This document shows positions 910 through 51,071 of a stretch of 64,000 nucleotides of DNA, one piece after another. This stretch comes from Eledone cirrhosa (taxonomy: Eukaryota), in contig OZ024743.1 of assembly GCA_964016885.1 (NCBI GenBank), forward strand, positions 258,540,001-258,604,000, read 5' to 3'. Positions within the stretch are counted from its first letter, which is position 1. Each line of letters opens with the position of its first letter. Both the position numbers and the translations under genes were made by a program. The notes beneath the pieces were generated by a model. That model had not been told where the DNA came from and ran no database searches. It saw nothing but the letters and a program-made list of their open reading frames with translations.

Positions 910-1182
910 GAAAGGTATAGAAATGAAAGGTATAGAAAACACTGCACCGAAAAGCGGACAGCATTCCATAGTATATATATATATATATATAGTATTAAGG
1001 ATACTATTTATGGTTATGTATATACTAAAACTTTTTATAGTTATATATATTTTAAACCCTAAACAGTGAAAGTCAGTAATTTATTACTACCTTATTACCA
1101 GTAAGATAAATAGCTCAATGTAATAACATCAGTTGTTCTACAGAGTAGTTATATAGAATTCACAGGAATCAAAGCATTTATT

Positions 1183-1229
1183 CGCTTACAATTGTTTCAT
1201 CCAAACCGAGGCTTGGAGTCTTCGGAGCA
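1183..1229 (-). ncRNA. Minimal type I hammerhead motif (CCGAAGA core variant) in 3' pLTR
   Basis: rc: tgct-CCGAAGA-ctccaagc ctcg gtttggat-GAAA-caattg-TA-agcg-AATAAA; stem III ACAATTGT is palindromic. Confidence 0.72.
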
Positions 1230-3593
1230 TTTTTCAATGTTTGTACACATACATGACCTCCTTTCCAACGCAAGAGACATACAGATACATATGTATATAT
1301 TGATGTACAGTGGGGTGACATATATTATATTATTTCTGAATGGCAATTTAAATTCAAAATTAAAATCACACTAAAACAGAATCAAAGCAAAATTAAAATT
1401 AAAATACAACATCAATGCAAAATTAAAATACAATCGGCAGTTAACGTAGATAATGCAAGAGGGTAGTTTGATAGTCAGTTGTAGTAGTTATTGTATGCAT
1501 TAGTTACACGTGGGGCATGCACGTGTGTCTTATTTATATATGATTATTGTGCAGCAGGGTGTTACATGTAATACAAGCACTTTAAGCGGGTAATCAAGAG
1601 TATTATGGAGGTTGTAGTGGCAAGGTATTTTCTGTATATGATAAAGAAGCTTGTGTGCAGAAAAATAGTATAAATGAGAAGCAAAATAATGTTATGGTTT
1701 TTGTAAACACCACCATTTTCACATTCAGGAAACGTAATATATAGTTTATATGTCCTTCACATAATTAACGATGAATCCGTATTGGATGTTTGATGTATTA
1801 AGTTAAATTATTATAGCTTGTTGCGGCTCAGTGTTCTTTAATCCAATTTTATAGAGCAGGTTGTTTCTGTTGCGAGAATTTACATCGTTTTATTATCCGG
1901 AAGTATGTGTGTGATTAAGGGGAGTTAATGCGTGAGGGGAGGTAACTAGCTGATTTCTATAACTAAATTTATTATTCCAACATACATTAAAAGGTGTCTC
2001 AATTGAGTCCCTTATATAGACGGTTATATATAGTTTCCAATTTTAAGTATCCTATCTTTAATTACAGTCTACTCTATCATGAAGTACTAAAGGTATCTAT
2101 ATTAGGATGATTACTCCCTATCATAGAGTGCTACAATTGAATATTCCATACGAAGAGTCAGATCTACATATCAAAGTTCTTTGTAAATGTAGTCTACTCA
2201 CAGAACCTGTCAGTGGCCCTATTAGAACCACGTCTATATAACCCCTGGTAAGCTCTGGGTCAGTGTATGGCTGACTGCATGGCAAAGCTAAATATCTCTA
2301 GGGTAGACCAAAAAGCATTTCTCACTTACAATGTCATTAATCTATCTATCAAGTTATACATGCATATATAACTCACATACCACTTGTACATAATTCATTG
2401 TACTCAACATATAGGTTATACAGCTCTCTTATGTTAATAAATTAATCCTCTATTTATCTAATGATAGCACTCCATAAATACAACAACATTTGCACAAATA
2501 ATTCATTGCTGAATTCGATGTTTAAAGTTTACATATAGTGATATAATACAGTCTAAGTAATTGAAAGTAATTATACTAAAAGTAGGTGTACATGGGATAT
2601 TTTTAGGGTAAAAGGTTATAGATAGATGGAACGAATTGTGTTAAGATAGGGTGGATCAGTGAGTGTGGAGTTGTGGTGTAAGATGTGCCCTTGAGGTGTA
2701 GTGCTAGAAGTGGTGATGGGTTCAAGCCTGAAATTGCTATATATTGGGTTTAAAGTTTTGGAAGGAGTGTCGGAAGCGGTGCTGGCATGACGCGAACACT
2801 TCCAATTTTTTATTAAGGGGGTTATGGTTTGAGAAGATAATAGTATGGGTCTCTAGTAGACAGAGGTTACAAAATTTATTAGGTGGTTTGTATGATGCCG
2901 CCTTACCTATCACTTCCCATTTAAGTGTATAAGATCTATTTTTAGTTTATAGATAGTGTATGTAGCTAGATAGTGAAGTGGAGTTGGCTAGACTGTGTTT
3001 TTTGAAAGAATGGAGGTGCGAATTGTATCTGGTTTTGAAGCAGTTTGAAGTAGAGCCTATATAGGTTTCAGAAGAGTTGCTAGTTGTGACGGTGCATGAG
3101 TATATGATATCCTTGATTAAGCATTTTTTATCTAAAGGGCGGGTTCTATTAGATCTACAGTTACAATTATTTTGGATGTTAGCCTGCCGGTTATTATGTT
3201 GTGTAGAAAATCTGGATGATAGTTGTTGCATTATGGTTATGGGGGTTGTCGCTCTCAGCGTTATTGCTTACATTAGTGCTATTACTATTGTTATCAGGGT
3301 TAGTTGATATAATGTTACTTTGAAGGTTTACCCCCTGTTGTGATTTAGTTTGTTGGAAGTAAGAATTAATTTTTCTTTTATTGCTACTAGCTATGTGGTA
3401 TGCTATGTTAGGCGTGGTAGAGTAGGAGATTTTAATTGTGTTTTTTGTTTAAAAGGCTATGGTACTTGTGGCCAGATGGGAAGTTTTTATCCAGGAGTGA
3501 GAAGAAAGCCTTAGGTAGGTTGGTAGAGACGTATGTATCTGTATGTCTCTTGCGTTGGAAAGGAGGTCATGTATGTGTACAAACATTGAAAAA

Positions 3594-3640
3594 TGCTCCG
3601 AAGACTTCAAGCTTCGGTTTGGATGAAACAATTGTAAGCG
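3594..3640 (+). ncRNA. Hammerhead motif in the inverted pLTR (copy of 1183-1229)
   Basis: tgct-CCGAAGA-cttcaagc ttcg gtttggat-GAAA-caattg-TA-agcg-AATAAA. Confidence 0.72.
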
Positions 3641-3699
3641 AATAAATGCTTTGAACATAGCTTTGATTCCAGCAGTGTCCAGCAGAAGCAAAGGGGACA

Positions 3700-4005: not shown

Positions 4006-4052
<47 letters not shown>

Positions 4053-6173: not shown

Positions 6174-7692
6174 TTCTTCTGGTTTTATAATTTCACAAAT
6201 TTTTGCCAATAGAGAGAGAGTCGGTTTCTAACATAGACACAAGACTCTCTCATTGAAATTTACACAACATCAACTACGTAGATATGTATGCATGCATGTG
6301 TGTGCAGGTATGGATGTTATTGTATGTGTGGATGTGTGTGTGTGCATGTACATATGCTTTGTATCTGTACATGTGTATATGCAGTTATCAGATGCCGAAT
6401 TTTTGGAATGTTTTACATATTTTTACTGTTCCATTAATGGATTGTAATTGCAATTTCCTAACTAGTTGTGTTCTTTCTGTTCCTGTGAAGTCCAGCTTCT
6501 CAAGATTTCTATTGAGGCAGTTACTAACATACCCCAGTGCCCCAATTATTACAGGCATAAATATGAAGGTCTAGTCAGGGTGGAGTATCTGCAGATTTCT
6601 CATTAGTTCTGCATAAATATTCTCCTTTTTGCTAATCTTTGATATTATATTGGCATCTGCTGGGCAGCTAACTTCCACTACCCTGCATACCTTCTTTTCC
6701 CTGTCCCATATCATTATATCTCGTCTGTTATGCCTGCATTTTATTGGGGTTTTACTGGAACATTCCACCAGTACTCTTTCATATTATGTATATGTATGTC
6801 TTCCACATTGCTGTACCTTTTAATGTGTTTATTATCGGGGCTATCTTTTCTACGGATTGCATTGTACAGTGTTTTGGCCACTACATCATGCCCCATAGGT
6901 AGATAGTACCGCGATGACATCTTTGGACAGCTGCTTATGACATGGGTGACATCTTCGACGTTAATTCTGCAGAGTCTGCACTTGTTGTCACATATAGGTG
7001 TTTTGCCTGCATCCCTATCTCTTTTGTGAATCAGGTATTTTGTGTTGATTTCCTGTTCTTGGATTACAAAAGCGTATCCTTCAAAGTGGGAACCAATATA
7101 GCAGTTGTTGGTCCAAGATAGACTACTTTGTTTATCTATATTACTCTCACTCTGGAGCTTCCTGGCAACATATCCATGCATGATTTTTTGCTGATAAGCA
7201 TGCAGTTTTTCATCCATGGATTCACTGCGGTACTGTTAGGCAACTTCCCTGGGTGTGAGTTTTTGATTATCACACAGAGAATATCTTTCAAGGAGTTCCT
7301 TCCCAACTCTCATCATCTTATCTGCTTCATGCAGATAGACTTGCTCGATAGACGGGCTCCTACACTTCAAGGTTCGTAAATGTTGTCGGAGGGATATGAT
7401 GCGACATTCAAATGCTGCCTGGACTGATGTTAGGCCTCTCCCTCCCTGCTTACATTTTAAGTAGTGATGGTCTATCTCACTGTTGATGTGGAAGTTTCCA
7501 GTGTTGTTTAGTATTTTTCGAGTCCTAACATCAATTTCTCGAATTTCGTCTATCATCCAATTGAGTATTCCAAATGTCAGTGTTAGAACAGGCACAGTAA
7601 ATACATTGTGAGCCACTGTTTTATTGTGCGCAGAGAGTTCCGATGGCCATATTTTTTGTAATTGGGTGTAATATTCCCTGGTTATGCATACC
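6174..7692 (-). mobile_element. R4/Dong-like non-LTR retrotransposon (RLE type), 5'-truncated, degenerate
   Basis: KQGGRGL, YAFVIQEQEINT, CCHC knuckle CRLC..HVISSC..GHD, HNRRDIMIWD..VVEVSCP, ORF end GTVKICKTFQKF. Confidence 0.88.
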
Positions 7693-7927: not shown

Positions 7928-9552
7928 ATCATCATCATCATCATCATCAACGTTTAACGTCCGTGTTCCACGCTTGCATGGGTTTGGACGGGGGTAGTCC
8001 CACTTGAGGCAAGAGTGATTGTCTTGCTCGCATAGGACTGTCTGGCGGGTTTTCTACAGTTGGATGCCCTTCCTAACACCAACCACATTTACAGTGTGGG
8101 TCTGGGAGGTTTTTACCGTGTTGCCTACACGGCCACATTACAGCATGGACTGTGTGTTTTTTTGTCGTGACACCTACACGATCTCATTTGTTTCGGCCTG
8201 GATGGCGCGGCACCAACATAACTTTACATAGAACGGTGTGGTGTGGATGGGGTGGGGGTGGTGGCGGGACGGGGTGTATTTTGTTAGAGATGCCTACTGG
8301 CAAGGCGGGTCTTCTCTGTTACTGAGTACCGCCAAAGGTCTCGGTCCAGTGACATTGTCTTGGAGAGGTGTAAGTGTGTGAGGTCGGAGTTTATCAGCTC
8401 ATCCCATGTTTTTCTAGGTCTGCCTATTCCGTGGCTACCGTCTATCTTTATTGCCCTGCACTTTGTTATATAGCTATCGACTTTCATGCGCATCACGTGT
8501 CCATACCAACGCAGCCTTCTCTCGAGTAAACAACATCTGATCCCTCTTATCTCTAATTTTTTCCTTAGTTCGTTTATGCTTTGCCGTTCACGTATATTAC
8601 TGTTACACATCCAGCGGAGCATGCAAGCTTCGTTCCTCTCTAGTCTGCGTATATCCTCTGCACACAATGCCCAGGTCTCACTACCATGCAACATTGCTGT
8701 TCGTATGCAGGCATCGTACAACCTGCCTTTCATTTTTAGGGAGAACCCTTTAGCAGCTAATAGTGGTATAAGCTCTCTGAACTTTTTCCAACCAGTTCTG
8801 ACTCTAGCTACAGTACTTTCAGAGCACCCTCCCCCACTGCTGATTTTATCACCCAGGTAACGGAAGCTGTCCACTATTTCTATAGAACCCTCTGCGCAAT
8901 TGAAAGAGCTAGTATTTTGTGGGCACTTGCTGCTACTTATTGCACCAGAACACCGGCCACATGTAAAATCTATGTTCTTAGTTAGCTTACCTGTGATCCC
9001 ACTACATCTTTTATGCACCCATACTTTGCATTTAGGACATAAAATGGAGTTTCTACCTACGCCTTTCCTACACACCGAGCACGACCATTTCCCAGAAGGG
9101 ACCGCCGCCTTGTTTTCTTTCCTACAAACTAGAACTTTGGTCTTAGCCAGGTTAATTTTAAGTCCTTTTGACTCTAGGCCGTGCTTCCATGTTTGGAATT
9201 TCTTCTCTAGCTCGGCCATTGATTCCGCTATGAGTGTCAGGTCGTCTGCGTATAGGAGTTCCCATGGGCAGCCTGTCTTGAACTCCTCTGTTATAGCCTG
9301 AAGGGCAATAATAAATAGTAGGGGGCTGAGAACAGAGCCCTGATGGACGCCAACTTTTACGCTAAACTCTTCACTATATTCGTTGTTAATTCTAACCTTG
9401 CTGACTGTTTCTTTATACATGGCTTGTATAGCCCTCACAAGCCATTCGTCAACGCCTAGTTTTCTAAGAGCCCACCAGATAATGGAGCGGGGGACTCTGT
9501 CGAAGGCTTTCTCCAGGTCGACAAAAGCTAAGTAGAGGGGTTTACCTTTAGC

Positions 9553-9553
<1 letters not shown>
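7928..9553 (-). mobile_element. RTE LINE 3' part (RT C-terminal half, 3' UTR, (GAT)n tail)
   Basis: ORF 8284..9438 has GVHQGSVLSPLLF, ELLYADDL, HGSETW and LRWYGHVMR; (ATC)n tract at 7928-7949. Confidence 0.95.
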
Positions 9554-9584
<31 letters not shown>

Positions 9585-9585
<1 letters not shown>

Positions 9586-10454
9586 TCTATAGAAATAGTG
9601 GACACCTTCCGTTACCTGGGTGACAAAATCAGCAGTGGTGGAGGGTGCTCTGAAAGTACAGTAGCTAGAGTCAGAACGGGATGGAAAAAGTTCAGAGAGC
9701 TTATACCACTATTGGCCACTAAAGGGTTCTCTCTAAAAATGGAAGGCAGACTGTATGATGCCTGCATACGAACAGCAATGTTACATGGCAGTGAGACTTG
9801 GGCATTGTGTGCAGAGGATATACACAGACTGGAGAGGAACGAAGCTTGCATGCTCCGTTTGATGTGTAATAGTAATATACATGAACGGCAAAGCATAAAT
9901 GAACTAAGGGAGAAATTAGGAATAAGAGGAATCAGATGTTGTTTACTCGAGAGAAGACTACGTTGGTATGGTCACGTGATGCGCATGAAAGATGACAGCT
10001 GTATAAAAAAGTGCAGGGCGATAAAAATAGACGGTAGCCACGGAGTAGGCAGACCCAGAAAAACCTGGGACGACTTGATAAATTCCGACCTCACACACTT
10101 ACACCTCTCCAAGACAATGTCACTACACCGAGATTTTTGGTGCTACACAGTAATACAGAAAACCCGCCATGCCTAAGTACAAAGCGAAACCTACAGTCAG
10201 TAGGCACCTCTAACAAAAATAGACCCCCGTCCCACCACCCCCACCCCATCCACACCACCCCTTTCGATGAAGGTAACACGGTAAAAACCTCCCAGTCCAC
10301 ACTGTAAATGTGGTTGGTGTTAGGAAGGGCATCCAGCCATAGAAAACCCGCCAGGCAGTCCTATACGAGCAAGACAACTAATCTTGCCTCAAGTGGGAAA
10401 ATTCCCGTCCAAACCCATGCAAGCGTGGAAGATGATGATGATGATGATGATGAT
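9585..10454 (+). mobile_element. RTE LINE 3' fragment, same family, opposite orientation
   Basis: ORF 9598..10176 is nearly identical to the C-terminus of 8284..9438; ends in (GAT)n. Confidence 0.95.
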
Positions 10455-22013: not shown

Positions 22014-22319
22014 TATGTATGTGTATCTATCTACTTACATATGTACATATATACACCTGTATGTCTCAATAATGTTTTCTTTTCTTTGTCACAAGGGAAA
22101 TATTCCAAGCATACAACTTAATGAATTCTTAAATGTCAGTGAGAAGTACCTACATTTCACTAATCTAAAGCAATTTCCAAATATATACTTCACTGAAACC
22201 TAAGGTCATATAGCCTACATTCAGCAGGAAATAGGTTTCTTATTTACATAAATGCCTACATAAATATGTGTGTCTGCTTTCAATTTCAACCATTTCATAT
22301 ATATATATATGTATATATA

Positions 22320-22353
<34 letters not shown>

Positions 22354-22527
22354 AGAGTGTGTGTGTATTTGTAGATTATGCATATTTATATATATATATA
22401 TACATATATATGTATAGGATCCCGAAGTAAATCGGGAGGTGAGCACTGTCAAAAAAGCCACTCTACATTAGTAGAGTATAGGTATATTCGTTTTAAAATG
22501 AATATATATATATAAATGTATGTAAAT

Positions 22528-22890
22528 TATAAATTACACAATAATCAAAACTATGTTCAAAACATTTTATTGCTGACAATCGTTTCTTCCAAACTTTTGT
22601 TTGGAATCATCGGAACACTAGCAAAGTTTGGACATATAATTAACTTGGACATAAAGTTTGGACATATAATTAAGTTAATTATATGCCCAAACTTTGCTAG
22701 AGCTCCGATGTTTCCAAACAAAAGTTTGGAAGAAACGATTGTCCTCAATAAAATGTTTTGAACATAGTTTTGATTATTGTGTAATTTATATTCCTGCTTT
22801 GTAAAACATCTGATGTATTTACATTGAGCTATTTTTCTTACTGGTAATAAGGTAGTAATAAATTACTGACCTTTCCTGTTTATAGTTGTA
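22528..22890. mobile_element. Fold-back PLE pLTR cassette (arms 22528-22646 and 22672-22790)
   Basis: ~119-bp inverted arms; 22800-22885 matches the rc of 1055-1143 (3' end of the first Penelope). Confidence 0.85.
22571..22617 (-). ncRNA. Hammerhead motif (CCGATGA core); degenerate mirror copy at 22701-22747 (+)
   Basis: rc: tgtt-CCGATGA-ttccaaac aaaa gtttggaa-GAAA-cgattg-TC-agca, AATAAA overlapping the stem end. Confidence 0.72.
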
Positions 22891-24468
22891 TATAATGTAT
22901 ACATAATTATAAATAATATTAATATTATTATTATAAATGTATGTATGCATTTATGTATATATATGTCAGGTCGCTCTTCAGCACTTCTGGTAACATGTAA
23001 CCCTGTACAATCTGTGCATGGTCAGGTCGTCAGCGACTAAACTGGCAACCCCACCAAGCTTGCATGGTGAGGAGGGAAAATTTGGGCACACTACAGGATG
23101 AAAAACAAAACCCATCAAAAGGCAGAGGAATTCAGGAGAGTCAATGGCCATCCAATCAAATTTTTTTTTTTCCTTGTGGAGAGAGAGACTCCTAGTCTTC
23201 ATTAAGACATCTTTCTAGGGGAAGATCACTCTGATATAAAACCTGCGACTTCATTTGCATCCAATGATGTAGACTAGTACTTCTTTTTGGGTAAAAGCAT
23301 TCGATGTTTAGAGAGTGGGATTAAAAAAGCATCAAGCACAGGCATCACTTGATATGTGACATTTTTTACAATACATGGTATTGTTGGCCATAGCAGGACT
23401 AAAAAGACACATGCACGATGCTCATGCTTAAGTATCAAGTGTTGGCATTATTGCATACATATATGTATGTAGGTACACATACATATATATATAGATGTGT
23501 GTTGGGTGTAGCAAAACTAAGGCGAGAGATTTTAACTTTTTCCCCCAGTTGACTACATAGATCATTGCAACCACAGATGCTGACCGTTTGGCCCTATAGA
23601 TAAGCAATTCATCTCGTTCTGTACTCAATGAATTTTACTTCCTTTGTTTTGGGATTTATGTCTCCAAATTGTTTAGAGAAATGGTTTTTTAGAGGCCATC
23701 TGCTTATTATCAGAAGATATCATCATTCTCATAAATATTGACATTGGCTGTCCTGGGTTCTGGTCTTTTTGGGCCAGCAAGCTAAGACATTCATTCTCCC
23801 ATTCAGCTTCCAGCAAAGGTTAGTTACATTCAACTTTTAAGACTGCTACAACACGCATCCCTGCTAAACCATCACATAAACATTATACACAATTTTACTA
23901 TGACTGTTTGTTGTTTTTCCTATGTTATCACAATTACTTCGAAGCAAGTTATTGCTAAATAAAATTATTAGAGTTGCGGCTTTGTTATTGTTGATTCACT
24001 ACTTGCTATGTCAACCATACATCTCAAATCAGAGACAACCAGCCAATCTAATCAACAATACAACTACACACATTTGATCAACTAACTAACAAAATTATAA
24101 TGTCACTACATTTGATGACCCTAATGAATGAACATACCTTCTGATGTTGAGGAGATGGAACTGTCTGTTTTTCCAATTTCTTTTTTGTGCCATTGTCTTT
24201 GTCTTGTGCACCCCACTGTTTTGAATTCATATTCTAAAAACTTAGCCATGCAGGCTTTTTTTAAACTATCATATAATATATATATATATATAAATATATA
24301 TAAAAAAGAAAATTTCACTCTACATGGTTGAATAAATGTAATCTGAGTTTTTCGAATATTAATAATAACATTCAATTCGTTTGCAATTATGCAAACAAGC
24401 TTCAATTTTATAGCCATGTTAGTAGAATGAACACTTCATTCTTGCTCTTATGTTGGCATGCGAACAGA

Positions 24469-24514
24469 ACTGCAGACACTAATGTTTCTGGGTATCACCC
24501 TTCATCAGTACAGC
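24469..24514 (-). ncRNA. Type I hammerhead, canonical core, GUC site
   Basis: rc: gctgta-CTGATGA-agggt gat accca-GAAA-cattagtg-TC-tgcagt. Confidence 0.82.
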
Positions 24515-25175
24515 TCACTGTTCACCTGCCAAACTGTCAGAGCTAGTGGAAATATATGCTATTTTCAAAAATACACAGTGACTGATCGACCTGATTTGTA
24601 TATTAGCAGACTGGCTGATCAGTCAGATCTGCATATTAGCAGATCCATTGATCAGCCATATTTGCATATCAGCAGACTGGCCTGTCAGTTTCCTGAATAC
24701 AAGTGATAAAAGGCCGGCTTTGCCAAATTCAAATAAAAAAGAAAATTTCACTCTACATGGCTGAATTCGTTTGCAATTATGCAAACAAGCCTCAATTTTA
24801 TAGCCATGTCAGTAGAATGAACCCTTAATTATTGTTCTTATGTTGGCATGTGAATAGAACTGCAGACAGTAATGTTTCGAATGTTATTATTAATATTTGA
24901 AAAACTCAGATTACATTTATTGTATTCAGCCATGTAGAGCGAAATTTTCTTTTTTATTTGAATTTGGCAAAGCCGGCCATTTATCGCTCGTATTCAGGAA
25001 ACTGATAGGCCAGTCTGCTGATATGCAAATCTGGCTGATCAATGGATCTGCTAATATGCAGATCTGACTGATCAGCCAGTCTGCTAATATACAAATCAGG
25101 TCGATCAGTCACTGTGTATTTTTGAAAATAGCATATATTTCCACTAACTCTGACAGTTTGGCAGGTGAACAATGA

Positions 25176-25221
25176 GCTGTACTGATGAAGCGTGATACCC
25201 AGAAACATTAGTGTCTGCAGT
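25176..25221 (+). ncRNA. Type I hammerhead, mirror copy
   Basis: gctgta-CTGATGA-agcgtgataccca-GAAA-cattagtg-TC-tgcagt. Confidence 0.78.
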
Positions 25222-25470
25222 TCTGTTCGCATGCCAACATAAGAGCAAGAATGAAGTGTTCATTCTACTGACATGGCTATAAAATTGAGGCTCGTTTGCA
25301 TAATTGCAAATGAATCGAATGTTATTATTAATATTCGAAAAACTCAGATTACATTTGAATATATATATATATATATATTGTTATGCTTTGGGAGGGTCAT
25401 GTTGCCAACAAATTCAGAAACGAATATATATATATCATCATCGTTTAATGTCAGTCTTCCATGGAAATAT

Positions 25471-30543: not shown

Positions 30544-30706
30544 CTAGATAACACTACATGCAGCTTTGACCTGGAGGGTCATTTAGAGGGAATTGGGGGG
30601 GGGGGTAAGGCTGCACAGCCCCACTTTCCGCCATGGCGATTGGACTGCATGCCCTGCTTTCCAGGTTACCCTTCGCCACTGATATATATATATATTTATA
30701 TATATA

Positions 30707-31972
30707 CAGGGTGCGGACGATATTTGTTCGCAAGATTACTGTCTAAGAAAAAATAACACAGTAGTTTTATTTTTTAAGATATATTTATCAAACTTAGGTC
30801 AGTTTGTCTTCATGACTTGTTCTTTCGATCTCACTCGATAAACCCGCCATTGGCTTTGATGATGGCCTCAAGGCGGCTACAAGCCTTCGTCACTGTCCCC
30901 CGACTTAGGCCCCTAAAGGCACTTGTGATTCTGGCCTTCAGATCGTCTTTCGTATTGCAGCTAGATCTGTTGGTGTCTCGTTCCACTGTGCCCCACACAA
31001 AGAAGTTGAGGGGGTTGCAGTCAGGTGAGCTAGGCCAGATGTCAGGTGAAGTGTGGTCGACGAGGTTCTCTGACAGCCAGGATTGGGTCTTTCGGCTGGT
31101 ATGGCAGGGCGATGAGTCTTGCTGCCACACGTACGGCCTACCTGGTCGATCCAGGGCTTTACTACCTCGCTCAGAATGCGGATGTAGCCATCGGTGTTCA
31201 GCTTGAAGCCCTCAGGGAAGAAGTGAGGTGGCATAATGTCACCTTGACTGCTGACGACACCTAAGACTAATGTTGTCGCTGGAAACTTTGTCTGCATGAC
31301 TCTGGGCACGTCTTTGGATGAGACAGGGAGCCACCTGTTGTTTTGGGAGATCTTCTGGTCTTGGCAGAAGTTTTTCTCATCGGAGAAAAACCACAGCATG
31401 TCTGGCTCCAGTGGGTGTTTCAACTTGTTGATCAGCTTCTTTTTGTGCTTCAGTTGCATCGCCTTTGACAGAAATTGTCCTTTCCTCATCTTGTATGAAA
31501 CGTAACGAATATCTTCATGTACCACCAGCCTAATTAGCTTTTCATCCACGCCTTTCTCCCTTGCAATGGCATGCATCGACTTGCTAGGTTCATTGTTGAT
31601 GATATCCTGAACTTCAGTGACAAACTCGGGCGTTCTGAAGGCATCAGATCATCGATCATGTGTTTTCCTCTCTGATGTTGCTTCGTAGTTGAATCCTGAA
31701 TCTTCCAATTCCTTTCTGACCTTTTCCACCATTCTCCTGCTGACGCTGAGAAAGTCTGAAATTTCATTATTTGTCCTCCTGGCGTGGATTCCAAGAAGAA
31801 CTCTGAGTCTCTTCCACAAATTTGGAGGTTCAAAATTATTGATAAAAATTATTCTGAAAATAAATAATGGAAATATAGTCGCTGTTTTTATGAAGACAAG
31901 AGTGACAACAGAAGTAAAAAAAATTTGCATAAAATTAGCAGTTGAAAATTGCGAACAAATATCGTCCACATC

Positions 31973-31975
<3 letters not shown>
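30707..31975 (-). mobile_element. Tc1/mariner DD37D (maT) transposon, near full length, frameshifted
   Basis: TIRs CAGGGTGCGGACGATATTTGTTCGCAA, TA flanks; WFFSDEKNF, WQQDSSPCH, SPDCNPL. Confidence 0.93.
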
Positions 31976-32051
<76 letters not shown>

Positions 32052-36562: not shown

Positions 36563-36777
36563 ATAGTGAAGTGAACTTCATAAAAAATGTTATATCCAAA
36601 ATTGGTAGAACACTCAGTCTGGGTAATTAGGTTAAATTAACAATTACATCTGCCAAATATGTTTCATTGTGGAATCATTTCTGCTGCTCATCAGTCCGAC
36701 ATATATAAAATGTATGTTGACATTTCAGAAAAATTCAAATGATGTGAATTTTAACCAATTTTGTGTATATATATATA

Positions 36778-38063
36778 CAGGGTGTGGACAATATTTGTTC
36801 GCAATTTTCAACTGCTAATTTTATGCAAATTTTTTGTACTTCCGTTGTCACTCTTGTCTTCATAAAAACAGTGACTATTTCCATTATTTATTTTCAGAAT
36901 AATTGATTATGAATAATTTTGAACCTCCAAATTTGTGGAAGAGACACAGAGTTCTTCTTGGAATCCGCACCGGGAGGACAAATAAGGAAATTTCAGATTC
37001 TCAGCATCAGCAGGAGGATGGTGGAAAAGGTCAGAAGGGAATTGGAAGATTCAGGATTCGACTACGAAGCAACATCAGAGAAGAAAACACATGATTGACG
37101 ATCTAATGCCTTCAGAACACCCGAGTTCGTCGCTGAAGTTCAGGATATCATCAACAATGAACCTAGCAAGTCGATGCGTGCCATTGCAAGGGAGAATGGC
37201 GTGGATGAAAAGCTCATTAGGCTGGTGGTACATGAAGACATTCGCTACATTTCATACAAGATGAGGAAAGGGCAATTTCTGTCAAAGGCAATGCAAGAAA
37301 AGCAACTGAAGCACGCAATGAAGCTGATCAACAAGTTGAAACACCCACTGGAGCCAGACATGCTGTGGTTTTTCTCCGACAAGAAAAACTTCTGCCAAGA
37401 CCAGAAGATCAACTCCCAGAACAACAGGTGGCTTGCTGTCTCATCCAAAGACGTGCCCAGAGTCATGCAGACAAAGTTTCCAGCGACAACATTAGTCTTA
37501 GGTGTCGTCAGCAGTCAAGGTGACATTATGCCACCTCACTTCTTCCCTGAGGGCCTCAAGCTGAACACCGATGCCTACATCCGCATTCTGAGCGAGGTAG
37601 TAAAGCCCTGGATCGACCATGTAGCTGCAGGTAGGCCGTACGTGTGGCAGCAAGACTCATCGCCCTGCCATACCAGCCGAAAGGCCCAAGCCTGGCTGTC
37701 AGAGAACCTCGTCGACCACACTTCACCTGACATGTGGCCTCCCAGCTCGCCTGACTGCAACCCGCTCGATTTCTTTGTGTGGGGTGCAGTGGAACGAGAC
37801 ACCAACAGATCTAGCTGCAATACGAAAGACGATCTGAAGGCCAGAATCACAAGTGCCTTTAGGGGCCTAAGTCGTGGTCAGTGACAAAGGCCTGTAGCCG
37901 GTTCCAAGGCCCCCTTGAGGCCGTCATCAAAGCCAATGAGATCGAAAGAACAAGTGATGAAGACAAACTGACCCAAGTTTGATAAATAAATCTTAAAAAA
38001 TAAAACTACTGTGTTATTTTTTCCTAGACTGTAACCTTGCGAACAAATATTGTCCGCACCCTG
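36778..38063 (+). mobile_element. Tc1/mariner DD37D (maT) transposon, second copy
   Basis: TIRs and TA flanks; ORF 37174..37884 has 37 residues between QQD and NPLD. Confidence 0.94.
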
Positions 38064-38139
38064 TATATATAATTTTTTCGTAATGAAAAAATATTTTTCT
38101 TTGATAGCAAGGCTCTCATATGTTTATTGTATATAAACA

Positions 38140-40257: not shown

Positions 40258-40502
40258 TATATCATCATCATCATCATTGTTTAATGTCCATTTTCCACGC
40301 TACCATGGGGTAGATGAGTTGTCCCATTAGAAGCAAGTTGGATCAGGTGATCATGTCTTGCTCATATAGAACTGTTTCTGGCTAGGTTTCTACAGCTGTA
40401 TGCCCTTCTTAACATCACCCACACTTACTGTGTGTGCTGGGTGCTTTTTGTCATGACTCCTACATGACCACTTTATAGTGAGTGCTGGGTGCTTTTTGTT
40501 GT

Positions 40503-40548
<46 letters not shown>

Positions 40549-40701
40549 GAAACACACAGATACATGCGGACACACACATATACATGAATGCATCCACACC
40601 AAACCGCGAGTTAAGGGTGCCAACCTCACCGATGTTGCTCAATGAATGACTGGGACAGACCAATCCGGTTGAACCAGACTGAACCAGTATCAGAGTTAAA
40701 A

Positions 40702-41107
40702 ATACATTATGAAGAGAGAAGGAACATTTAGATATAATTAGTAATAAAATGTATCATACCTAAACTGCTCCTAGATTCCTCGACTACGTAGTTTCGTGGC
40801 ATAAACAAAAACAATACATCATAAAGATATAGAGTCCTTGCGAGCTCTGTTTCTCGACCGTTATATCGCGTGACTATCTCCCCCTCCGCCTTTTGGGATT
40901 CTTTCTCACGTCGTGTAGACGCGTTCTTGAGGCTAGTAAAATGAGGTATCCTCTTGATAAGTCGGCAGACCTCGCAAGGACTCTATATCTTTATGATGTA
41001 TTGTTTTTGTTTATGCCACGAAACTACGTAGTCGAGGAATCTAGGAGCAGTTTAGGTATGATACATTTTATTACTAATTATATCTAAATGTTCCTTCTCT
41101 CTTCATA

Positions 41108-41112
<5 letters not shown>
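40702..41112. mobile_element. Fold-back HHR cassette (arms ~40702-40849 and ~40966-41112)
   Basis: near-perfect ~145-bp inverted arms, followed by (TA)n. Confidence 0.88.
40949..41038 (+). ncRNA. Hammerhead with U3-A8 covariant core and long stem II insert
   Basis: tcctc-TTGATAA-gt(c)ggca...tgccac-GAAA-ctacgtag-TC-gagga; ACTACGTAGT is palindromic. Confidence 0.75.
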
Positions 41113-41153
<41 letters not shown>

Positions 41154-41295
41154 TAGGTAGTATGGTGAAATACTGGTGTTGGTACCATAACTCCTATGGG
41201 CCACCTTGAGCCAATCCTCTGTGAAATGCACGTAACAGGCCAATACAATAAATATTATTTTTCATATGTAAACGAAATTTTTTCGTTTTTTCTAC

Positions 41296-41329
<34 letters not shown>

Positions 41330-41408
41330 AGTTTATCCCGGGTTGAATTGGGGGTAACCACAGTAAGTAAGGTACTCAATACAAAGCAGAGTATAAATAT
41401 TAATATAG

Positions 41409-41467
41409 AAATGGCTTCCTGATGATTTCTCCTGAATGAAACAGTTCTAGTCCTGTAGAAGCCATTT
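41409..41467 (+). ncRNA. Hammerhead, canonical core, 10-bp stem I
   Basis: aaatggcttc-CTGATGA-tttc tcct gaat-GAAA-cag ttctagtc ctg-TA-gaagccattt. Confidence 0.82.
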
Positions 41468-41472
41468 ATATA

Positions 41473-41511
<39 letters not shown>

Positions 41512-41518
<7 letters not shown>

Positions 41519-41760
41519 TGTACTAAACAACATAAGGCAATTATTCCATTTACTAGTGGTTTCTTAAAAGCAAAAAATTTTGCTTTCAATCCTCAGAATG
41601 AAAAAATCTGAGGATTGAAAGCAAATTTCTTTGCTTTTAAGAAACCACTGGTTAATAGAATAATTGCCTTATGTTGTTTATTACATAACTATTAAGCTCT
41701 GTTACCTACATAGAGCACTCTTTTTTCCTGGACTTTTCCGACGGAATTACTTCATTCACA
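41512..41760. mobile_element. Fold-back HHR cassette (arms 41512-41598 and 41606-41692)
   Basis: inverted arms with a 7-nt spacer, TA tracts on both sides. Confidence 0.85.
41545..41602 (-). ncRNA. Hammerhead, canonical core; mirror copy 41608-41653 (+) has a damaged stem I
   Basis: rc: ttcatt-CTGAGGA-ttgaaagcaaa attt tttgcttttaa-GAAA-ccactag-TA-aatgga. Confidence 0.78.
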
Positions 41761-41828
41761 CATATATATATATATATATATTAATGAAAAAGAACAAAGG
41801 AACTATTATGACATTATAACAAGTTTAT

Positions 41829-41875
41829 TGCCGACAGCCGTTTCGTCCGACCATATGGTGGGACTTTTCAAGGCA
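41829..41875 (-). ncRNA. Hammerhead with U3-A8 covariant core, GUC site
   Basis: rc: tgcc-TTGAAAA-gtcccacc atat ggtcggac-GAAA-cggctg-TC-ggca, AATAAA overlapping the stem end. Confidence 0.82.
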
Positions 41876-42087
41876 TATAACATGTGATATACATACATAC
41901 ATATACAAATACAAATATATTCATTTTACTAAGGCTAAATAATAAGTCTTCTTACTCTTGAGTTTCACTTAGGTAAAACTAGAGAGTGCCAAAACTCACT
42001 ATTTAGCCTTACTAAACTAAATATTATAATTCTACTTCAGTATTTAGTACTCTTTTCTCTCAACCATCAACTACATACAGATATATG

Positions 42088-44631: not shown

Positions 44632-44984
44632 CAAGAAAGTAAGTGTTGGTAAAATCCAGTACTTCAGTATGCGGATAGGGAGCACTCAACGAAGATATAA
44701 GTTCCGGAGTTATAATAGTGACGAAACATAAGTCAATTGCATGAACTCATAATCCTTTATTTACTGCTATATATATATTTTGATGATAGCCATTGAATGG
44801 CTATGACCTCATTAGGCAGTTAGTCAGTTCTTAGATATGCCAACTCTGTGTTTATAGTGTTGATAGTATCAGAGCCTTGGGACATATGATGAGGTCATAG
44901 TCATGCAATGGCTATCATCGAAATATATATAGCAGTAAATAAAGGATTATGAGTTCATGCAATTGACTTATGTTTCGTCACTAT
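44629..44984. mobile_element. Fold-back HHR cassette (arms ~44715-44812 and ~44889-44984)
   Basis: inverted arms, TA tracts on both sides. Confidence 0.85.
44763..44820 (-). ncRNA. Hammerhead motif, mutated; the mirror copy 44886-44936 (+) retains TGATGA and GAAA
   Basis: rc: actgc-CTAATGA-ggtcatagccat tca atggctatcatc-AAAA-tatatata-TA-gcagt-aaataaa. Confidence 0.65.
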
Positions 44985-44989
44985 ATATA

Positions 44990-49390: not shown

Positions 49391-50615
49391 GCTGAATGTG
49401 TTCATTGTATTCAATATAAACCTGGGTTTCTCATTATTGCTCTTCTAGTTTACAGTTATTGGTTGGTTCCTGGATAATGATTGGTTAAACAGTTCAGTCA
49501 TTGTTGTTATTGTTGTTGTCGTTGTTGTTGTTGCTGTTGTTATATTTGATGTTATTTTTATTGTTGTTGTTGCGTTTGTTGTTGTTATTGTTGTTGTTGT
49601 TACAGTGCTTATGGTCCCTGTTATTGTTAAATTCTTCTTACTGATTTTTTATTTCTTTAGTGTCACCAATTATTACTAAATTTGCGCCTTAGATTTAGCT
49701 GTTTTGTTTGTTATTACTGCTGTAGTTGTTGTTCTTTTTCTGTTCAAATCAATTTAAGATGAGGTTTTCTGCATATATGTCATTCTACTTTTCTTTTGTA
49801 GTCACCTTGATGGCTTTAAGGGTTGATTTTACACAATTTCTAGTTACATTCCATAGAATTTCTTCATTTTTATGTAATATCATTTTTTATATTTTCTGCT
49901 GAAAACTTTTAATAATTAGGAAATATTGCACTTCACCTGCTGTCATGCGGTTTTCTCCCTTCAACACTGGGCCACCTCTCATGACATGCCTCTCCATGAG
50001 TTTGTTAAGCATGGCTTAGATACAGATGATTTCATCTTGCAGCTAGAACCAAGGCAATGACAAAAGGCCAGATGGCATCACAATCTTCCTATTCTGAGAA
50101 GTTGTGCTGTGTAGCTACCTATCTATTCATGCCAGAAAGGAAACAACATAAATGTTAAAACAATAATAATGGTGATGTTGATAATATTTGAAATGTATAT
50201 AACAGTGGTTGCAAACATCTGTGTATATCTGGTTTAGAATATGTACATTGTATCCCAACATGTTGTGAGAGGCAACTAAAAAAATGGTTGAACCAGGAAA
50301 GGTATCTGACTATAAAACCTTGCCTCAAAGAATCTATCATCAGGTCAGGCAAGGCTAACCCCTGCTTTACCGGACAAAATATCCTTGAATAACTTCTTGT
50401 TATTGAAGAATTTATAGTATGTGTGCCCAAGATAGCATGTGTAAATATTTTATAGGCATGTAGGAGATATATTTTTTGTTAGCGATTTTATCTATTTAAA
50501 AAGTGTGCAAAATTTAATTTATCGTCTTTTATCTCACTGATTCAAAATTGAAATATAAATTTAAATGAAAAAACATGTCATCTCTGATCAAAACAAAGCG
50601 AAGGTGTGTTTGAAT

Positions 50616-50925
50616 ATATATAAAAATGAGAAAACTCATTGCTACTACACCCATTAAAACAGCTAAATGCTGTCAAAGACAGCAATGCACAAAAATGCCT
50701 CAGAAGCCAGCGGGCAACAGAGAGACAATCCATAAGGTCGGTGACAGGCAGATAAAATATAGCAAAGATATAAAGAGACTAGCCATTAAAACAATTGTGT
50801 ATTGTCTTTCTGTTGACCACTGGCTGCTGGTTTCTGTCCTTTGAGGTGTGTTTGCTCATCACTGTCTTTGACAGCATTTAGCTGTTTTATGGCTGTCCTA
50901 GTGATGAGTTTTCTCATTTTTATAT
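50616..50925. repeat. Diverged fold-back element (arms ~50616-50729 and ~50801-50925)
   Basis: atataaaaatgagaaaactcat / atgagttttctcatttttatat and taaaacagctaaatgctgtcaaagacag / ctgtctttgacagcatttagctgtttta. Confidence 0.8.
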
Positions 50926-51071
50926 GTACTGAGATATAAATGTTTGTTTGTTAAAATGACCACTGGTTTGTCAAAGTGGGGACAATTCTCAGCTTACAGG
51001 TAATGTTTATCATTAATACTATATCATCAAAAACTATAAACATTGACATCTGGTAGTCAAGGTGGGGGCCA

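Follow-up and report, generated by a model that had tools for sequence, protein, structure and literature searches.

How several unrelated hammerhead ribozyme motifs come to lie side by side between (TA)n tracts, within about 1.5 kb of the genome of Eledone cirrhosa, is the question raised by this locus. An earlier note had described four hammerhead families with unrelated stems here and had explained them as ribozyme cassettes which accumulate on both strands by repeated targeted insertion into one microsatellite landing pad. The window, meaning the whole stretch of 64,000 nucleotides that was analysed, is AT-rich and full of microsatellites and transposon fragments. In its stack of hammerheads about five unrelated modules, designated A to G together with their extensions, are found between TA tracts (Table 1). 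With a probability of roughly 0.85 these are 5'-truncated 3' ends of Penelope-like retroelements (PLEs), probably Hydra-like ones, which were deposited by serial insertions into (TA)n. The PLE parentage of the individual modules is likely on the grounds of their anatomy. We infer the order and the enzymology of the insertions as well as any ribozyme activity from the sequence, the hammerheads being predicted motifs.

Table 1. Map of the hammerhead stack and its borders (positions are those of the window).
Feature	Positions	Strand	Remarks
Dispersed 248-nt repeat	40258-40505		No hammerhead; adjoins left (TA)20
(TA)20 tract	40506-40545		Left boundary
111-nt segment prolonging the A left arm	40586-40696	-	One-sided tail of family A predicted from position only
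A, left arm	40697-40849	-	Inverted 5'-truncated copy; 0 differences/140 nt vs right arm
A-left 3' half-motif	40782-40795	-	GAAA-CTACGTAG-TC
A, complete type I hammerhead motif	40949-41038	+	U3-A8; predicted cleavage after 41033
A, right arm	40966-41118	+	Runs directly into (TA)20
(TA)20 tract	41111-41150		After A
Module B	41151-41295	+	Weakest member; half-motif GAAA-TGCACG-TA at 41223-41234, then AATAAA
(TA)17 tract	41296-41329		
Module C	41330-41467	+	Complete hammerhead motif 41409-41467; TA end 10 nt past predicted cleavage
(TA)24 tract	41467-41514		
D, left arm	41512-41608	-	Complete hammerhead motif 41603-41544; 5'-truncated at ~41608
D, right arm	41607-41692	+	Inverted copy; 6 differences/83 nt
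Segment E	41693-41760	+	One-arm continuation of family D, likely PLE tail; ends at (CA)(TA)9
(TA)10 tract	41762-41781		
Module F	41782-41890	-	Complete hammerhead motif 41875-41829; U3-A8 core
Module G	41917-42075		Decayed head-to-head pair 41917-41968/41973-42024, 12 differences/52 nt; one-sided extension to ~42075

Hammerhead motifs of the stack

All four motifs claimed for the stack are present (A at 40949(+), C at 41409(+), D at 41596(-), F at 41875(-)), and they are indeed unrelated, no module giving a BLASTN match to another. For D, motifs on both strands were confirmed at 41545(-)/41608(+), where they proved to belong to a single family arranged as an inverted pair. The half-motif reported near 41223 was located there, and the one reported at about 41973-41986 exists but lies at 41953-41966(-) on the left arm of G, where it reads GAAA-CTCAAGAG-TA, with a decayed inverted partner at 41973-41988. 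Two points had been overlooked: module A forms an inverted repeat of 153 nt and contains a second half-motif, and 41693-41760 prolongs family D.

Explicit pair lists were obtained for A, C, D, and F, in each of which three helices are closed at stem I. The motif of A has its stem I at 40949-53/41034-38, the core TTGATAA at 40954-60, GAAA at 41020, and a cleavage triplet ending at 41033; its stem II contains one bulge and a 46-nt loop, its stem III is the palindromic ACTA-CG-TAGT, and the fold constrained to the hammerhead has -22.5 kcal/mol as compared with -23.6 kcal/mol for the MFE fold. C combines a 10-bp stem I (41409-18/41458-67) with the core CTGATGA at 41419, which reads CTGATGA-T with a T.T at the base of stem II, and a stem III of ACAG/CTGT with an 8-nt loop III. 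In D the core is CTGAGGA (41596-90), stem II has 11-12 bp, stem III is ACCA-C-TGGT, and cleavage is predicted at 41551. F carries the core TTGAAAA (41871-65), a stem II of GTCC/GGAC, and a predicted cleavage site at 41833, with AATAAA following 3 nt past this site and the 3' end of the module at TA. The cores of C and D are canonical (C3UGANG8A...GAAA...UH) and those of A and F are U3-A8 covariant, which means that the two apparent core mismatches in the latter are one compensatory change, U3-A8 for C3-G8. B, G, and A-left hold the 3' half of a hammerhead only, without the catalytic core; in B no core was found and the fold z was -0.31. The hammerhead of the right arm of D has no 5' strand of stem I, and the 3' strand of that stem is decayed. 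MFE folds of C, D, and F did not fully adopt the hammerhead geometry. The short palindromic stem III should permit dimerisation, the predicted self-duplex amounting to -14.3 kcal/mol for A, -14.8 for C, -11.1 for F, and -6.4 for D, and to only -3.7 for B. Downstream of the hammerhead of A, the letters of 41056-41110 give the impression of a splice donor (AG/GTATGA), a branch site (TACTAAT), and a tract of pyrimidines; introns are known to be kept by PLEs.

A strict descriptor matched three times in the region (C, D, and F) as compared with a mean of 0.004 in dinucleotide shuffles with the TA tracts taken out, three or more matches occurring in none of 1000 shuffles, and seven times in the whole window (mean of 30 shuffles 0.33). 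A was missed due to its bulged stem II. Six 3' half-motifs were counted against a shuffle mean of 0.36 and a maximum of three in 1000 shuffles. Both descriptors were written post hoc, when the motifs had already been seen, and these chance figures are thus optimistic. Rfam yielded no gathering-level match within the window; only F touches the Hammerhead_1 family (20.1 bits, E 0.14, cut-off 34). Matches of the inverted repeats to Rfam miRNA families were all under the gathering score and were rejected as reflecting the hairpin shape. Exact-pattern scans gave no match, neither for D (contigs of metagenomes and of viruses) nor for A (contigs of metagenomes and of prokaryote genomes).

Inverted pairs, ends, and TA tracts

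Three modules are head-to-head inverted pairs, with lengths of 153 nt in A, 86 nt in D, and 52 nt in G, and their arms differ unequally, from no position of 140 in A to 12 of 52 in G (Table 1). This unequal divergence suggests separate ages for the three pairs, provided that both arms arise at insertion; gene conversion could blur the comparison. No inverted repeat was found in C or F, and the locus contains no head-to-tail tandem or direct repeats with a hammerhead in each unit. No open reading frame for a reverse transcriptase (RT) or a GIY-YIG endonuclease occurs in or adjoining modules A to G, which are too short to hold one, and no start of a PLE reading frame was recognisable in the translation of module A.

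Seven of the nine motif copies have a TA-type run no more than 110 nt past the cleavage position, as compared with 0.116 at random positions outside the cluster. The copies have tracts in common and thus do not count as independent. The two remaining copies, A-left (236 nt) and G-right, both carry an extension. Such one-sided tails recur along the stack: family D ends at 41512/41692 or continues through E, G behaves similarly, and a tail is predicted for A, the segment in question having no other copy in the window. With 68-160 nt these tail-like segments are longer than the published tails of 30-40 bp.

Five insertion events fall into 1.55 kb and four into the remaining 62.5 kb, for which a per-base Poisson model, applied post hoc, gives a probability of 7e-8, or 3e-6 after correction for 41 windows. 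Since in addition the window has 33 other TA tracts (merged), the majority of them free of hammerheads, the locus is a local hotspot of insertions. It is not specific for ribozymes, because hammerhead-free repeats abut the same TA tracts; the 248-nt repeat on the left has TA on the flank shown in four of its eight other matches, and to the right of the stack lies a fragment matching an RT-like open reading frame. A preference of insertion for (TA)n is indicated by the module ends and by the reads of D described below. According to a review, new PLE insertions are often found within or next to older copies of PLEs (PMC6765202).

Copies of the modules in sequencing reads

Reads from four of the 13 listed runs, none of which is recorded as RNA, were aligned to 41515-42085, that is to modules D, E, F, and G, at 80% likeness. 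In the two raw-read RAD runs (X11 and X12) the depth was about 1100-1400 over D, 1500-1900 over E, 110-140 over F, about 20 over the left part of G, and 250-460 over its right part, neighbouring modules thus differing about 10-fold in a depth which, with RAD libraries and summed contig depth, does not equal copy number. D/E had the highest depth in all four runs, one of which is labelled as another organism, and D/E, F, and G were multicopy in each of them, every one as a family of its own.

Past 41608, 758 and 580 reads as well as 15 contigs enter a shared upstream sequence which is missing at the locus, and D is consequently 5'-truncated here; 30 letters of its upstream body are visible in the reads. 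At 41692, which mirrors the left end at 41512, the family sequence breaks off in 235 and 227 reads, which may come from few or many loci, and (AT)n follows with an agreement of 0.74-0.75. A lack of TA association in the copies, which the earlier note had named as a refutation, was thus not seen for D. The depth is high and continuous across 41692 and most reads pass on through E. As some reads stop at this point while others cross into E, two kinds of 3' end exist in the D family, a plain one and one prolonged by about 68 nt. Joints between opposite strands were observed in D at 41605-08, 41574/41630, and 41575/41646, and in G at 41994/42046.

The base of the window at 41523 is absent from eight of eight and one of one reads covering the site, which suggests that these stem from other copies or another allele. 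Three variants of F were found among the 40 rows shown (82 were not shown), affecting loop II and N7, which is a free position, two of them supported by reads starting at few places. Pile-ups at 41539, 41624, 41662/41665, and 41746 were considered as copies starting at the ribozyme cleavage site and were rejected, because all of them are AATT sites and likely are a RAD restriction artefact; the heterogeneous loose ends at AATT sites (agreement 0.34) were left out of the analysis.

A probable Hydra-like element elsewhere in the window

At about 970-3654 the window contains a larger element that can serve as a control. Its inverted ends of 126 nt are 97.6% identical and each carry the hammerhead core CCGAAGA, TA tracts lie at 972-991 and 4013-4050, and its open reading frame is broken. 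By its sequence it appears to be a 5'-truncated Hydra-like PLE on the minus strand with remnants of the thumb and of the GIY-YIG domain. About 1.4 kb separates the end of the reading frame from the 3' hammerhead. For the GIY-YIG remnant the Pfam score remained under the cut-off (E 0.019) and 4639 relatives were obtained with HMMER; in two word-index protein searches none of 199 and none of 13 candidates scored. A relative of 696 amino acids, P0016, is 41% identical over 139 amino acids to the remnant, and a comparison by eye with the Hydra alignment in the literature showed that it carries the RT motifs; a Pfam search of P0016 named no RT family. In agreement with the description of the Hydra clade (PMC8557442), the element has CxC, CxxC, and CxH motifs and no CCHH, again judged by eye; its third linker cysteine reads arginine.

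Modules A to G do not match this element. The only link is a 25-nt match of F to the second copy of its family (22566-22590, E 0.018). The variant core CCGA(A/T)GA, in which C replaces the usually invariant U4, was noted at 1225(-), 3598(+), and 22613(-), from two separate insertions, and a further decayed copy near 22705 brings the motif copies of this family to four. The C4 core may be a variant that the ribozyme tolerates, or it may mark a ribozyme that is dead. More hammerhead-bearing inverted elements beside TA are present at 22520-22930, 24292-25356, and 44711-44989. That at 24292-25356 was seen to be a complex inverted and tandem element with arms of 433 nt (96.8%), canonical hammerheads, TA at both ends, and an internal 33-nt tandem repeat. 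At 44711-44989 a pair of half-hammerheads (GAAA-CATAAG-TC) is arranged tail-to-tail, the reverse of the layout of A, D, and G.

Comparison with known retroelements

Insertions of PLEs have been described as strongly truncated at the 5' end and accompanied by an inverted, likewise truncated copy, with a tail of 30-40 bp at one end and a hammerhead near the 3' end (PMC8557442). For the Hydra clade the same source gives (TA)n as a target in 26 of 27 rows, an octopus family included, and notes an inverted 5'-truncated copy for one Hydra family (Craig et al. 2021, PMC8557442). Hammerhead-bearing PLE ends and their targeting to (TA)n are thus both already published, the octopus family included. The Hydra-clade elements have in common with our modules a 3'-proximal type I hammerhead and a stem III of 4 bp with a tiny loop. 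When compared by eye, the stem III sequences of C, D, G, and A are similar to those of the Hydra motifs listed, ACCA-C-TGGT of D corresponding to ACCA-A-TGGT of Hydra-1_oBim, and C shares with them the pattern ctgatgat...tgaa (PMC8557442). This likeness of stem III is weak for assignment to a clade, because 4-bp stems of the type AC..GT have few possible sequences. In stems I and II, by eye, none of the modules agrees with Hydra-1_oBim, which indicates other families, the U3-A8 core of A and F is absent from the Hydra motifs listed, and the accessible part of the account describes no stack of several families at one site (PMC8557442). No other literature account of such a stack was found in a search that reached a minority of the subscription papers.

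Hammerheads of metazoan PLEs occur as opposite-strand pairs 100-700 bp apart, mostly in truncated copies, and the U3-A8 covariation has been reported for hammerheads of Schistosoma Cercyon PLEs (PMC4209133). The hammerheads of Cervera and De la Pena (2014, PMC4209133) share with the predicted motifs of the stack a short stem I, a long stem II, and a palindromic stem III/loop 3, but not the 46-nt loop II of A or the 8-nt loop III of C. Poseidon PAc of Anolis uses two internal RT start sites, which give ends with or without a tail; it cuts AT-rich DNA, and hammerhead cleavage is not needed for its insertion in vitro (Frangieh et al. 2024, PMC11167929). It differs from the present modules in belonging to another clade, in its tail of about 30-40 bp as compared with 68 nt in D/E and more in other modules, and in a preference for an ATT motif and not for a microsatellite (PMC11167929). 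Non-LTR retrozymes are non-coding and AT-rich and contain type I hammerheads, as is the case here, but consist of head-to-tail tandem units of 150-450 bp with a ribozyme in each, whereas the units of the stack are unrelated and paired head-to-head (Cervera and De la Pena 2020, PMC7229834). For octopus, recently active Penelope-like families have been listed in a paper whose main text does not contain the word hammerhead (PMC13282606).

Origin of the stack

From this anatomy a course of events can be proposed. The GIY-YIG endonuclease of a PLE would nick (TA)n, and the RT would start at one of two sites shortly downstream of the hammerhead, giving either a short or a tailed end. Reverse transcription would abort after 100-300 nt, and a second truncated cDNA would often be joined head-to-head, yielding the inverted pairs A, D, and G. 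TA would be left on both sides of each insertion, so that the target would survive and remain open to further insertions. At this locus the ribozymes would be passengers, their function having been in the RNA of the parent elements. Segment E is predicted to form two hairpins (41696-41716 and 41725-41744, z -2.8), which by analogy to the PAc stem-loop may hold the RT start site.

Several other explanations have to be weighed. The modules might be short non-autonomous hammerhead elements of a retrozyme- or SINE-like kind, moved as whole units by PLE enzymes in trans. Such units would fit the absence of open reading frames at the locus and the very high read depth of D/E, and a preprint, in its accessible part, derives animal retrozymes from PLEs (10.64898/2026.07.22.740005). 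We consider this decidedly unlikely, as tandem units with a hammerhead each are lacking, A-left, B, and G are wholly devoid of a catalytic core, and D copies elsewhere extend upstream of 41608, which makes D here an incomplete unit. That the whole stack represents a single composite element, multiplied as a block, is very improbable: it is tightly packed, and opposite-strand joints at 41605-41608 in three runs demonstrate that the D junction exists beyond the assembly of the window, but the depth changes about 10-fold between neighbours, 78-80% of the aligned raw reads continue into unlike sequence with no listed piece spanning the stretch (the TA gaps being unbridged by reads), and the arms have diverged unequally. 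Occurrence of the modules elsewhere in the same order, which the earlier note had named as the mark of a composite element, was not seen in the reads covering 41515-42085, where the TA gaps at 41747-94 and 41885-928 cannot be bridged. Hardly credible is an interpretation of A, D, and G as DNA elements of the MITE or foldback kind which have TA target sites and resemble ribozymes incidentally. Such elements are bounded at both ends by fixed, symmetric terminal inverted repeats, and the modules show no such arrangement. It would account for long inverted repeats flanked by TA, but not for hammerhead cores in the arms far above chance, for an extension on one arm, for the upstream continuation of D with varying inversion points in other copies, or for C and F, which have no inverted repeat.

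A further proposal is compatible with serial PLE insertion and concerns the tracts themselves, which could have been made or lengthened at integration by RT slippage or repair synthesis, each event creating the next target. The crowding of events at the locus (by the post hoc test given above) points in this direction, as do the perfect (TA)20 at the end of A, the module that looks youngest, and the degenerate TA/CA runs flanking G, which looks oldest. Ordinary slippage and decay of microsatellites would yield the same pattern, however, most of the other TA tracts lack hammerheads, hammerhead-free repeats also abut TA, and an empty site was not seen, so that we regard the proposal as unlikely. 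Equally doubtful is its broader form, by which PLE integration regenerates or lengthens (TA)n, each insertion seeding the next, and the microsatellite becomes a self-feeding and time-ordered archive of many PLE families.

With truncated PLE ends as the preferred reading, much of the earlier explanation stands in altered form. Repeated insertion at (TA)n as independent events is supported by the unrelated modules, by their apparently differing ages, and by D, F, and G being separate multicopy families. The free ribozyme cassettes have to be given up in favour of likely truncated 3' ends of Penelope-like retroelements, and the distribution on both strands, while real, is in part the habit of single insertions to contain an inverted copy. 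The landing pad is a largely correct idea, which had already been published and is not restricted to ribozymes.

One locus of 1.5 kb thus brings together the ends of about five probably uncatalogued families of differing ages. Two of these have a U3-A8 core that is missed by standard descriptors and Rfam, and counts of ribozymes and PLEs in such genomes are therefore likely to be underestimates. The inverted structures of PLEs and their bias towards microsatellites are an open point named in the literature (PMC8557442), for which the locus offers a natural test site. If insertions did create TA targets, a telomerase-related RT would be linked to the birth of microsatellites, much of the TA-repeat load of the genome would be PLE-built, and the set of cores would be unusually wide (C3-G8, U3-A8, and the C4 variant at 1225, 3598, and 22613).

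Other repeats of the window

Some further repeats were noted. A decayed inverted repeat with 69% identity and no clear core lies beside TA at 50615-50928, and an opposite-strand pair of half-motifs at 22147-22207 may be due to chance. A fragment of a non-LTR open reading frame of the zinc-knuckle/restriction-like type is found at 6741-7691(-), and a non-LTR RT fragment with a YADD motif occurs as an inverted pair at 8284-10176. Two copies at 30699-31987 and 36766-38071, which are 91% identical, have transposase-like open reading frames and are flanked by TA runs, are presumably Tc1/mariner-like by their motifs.
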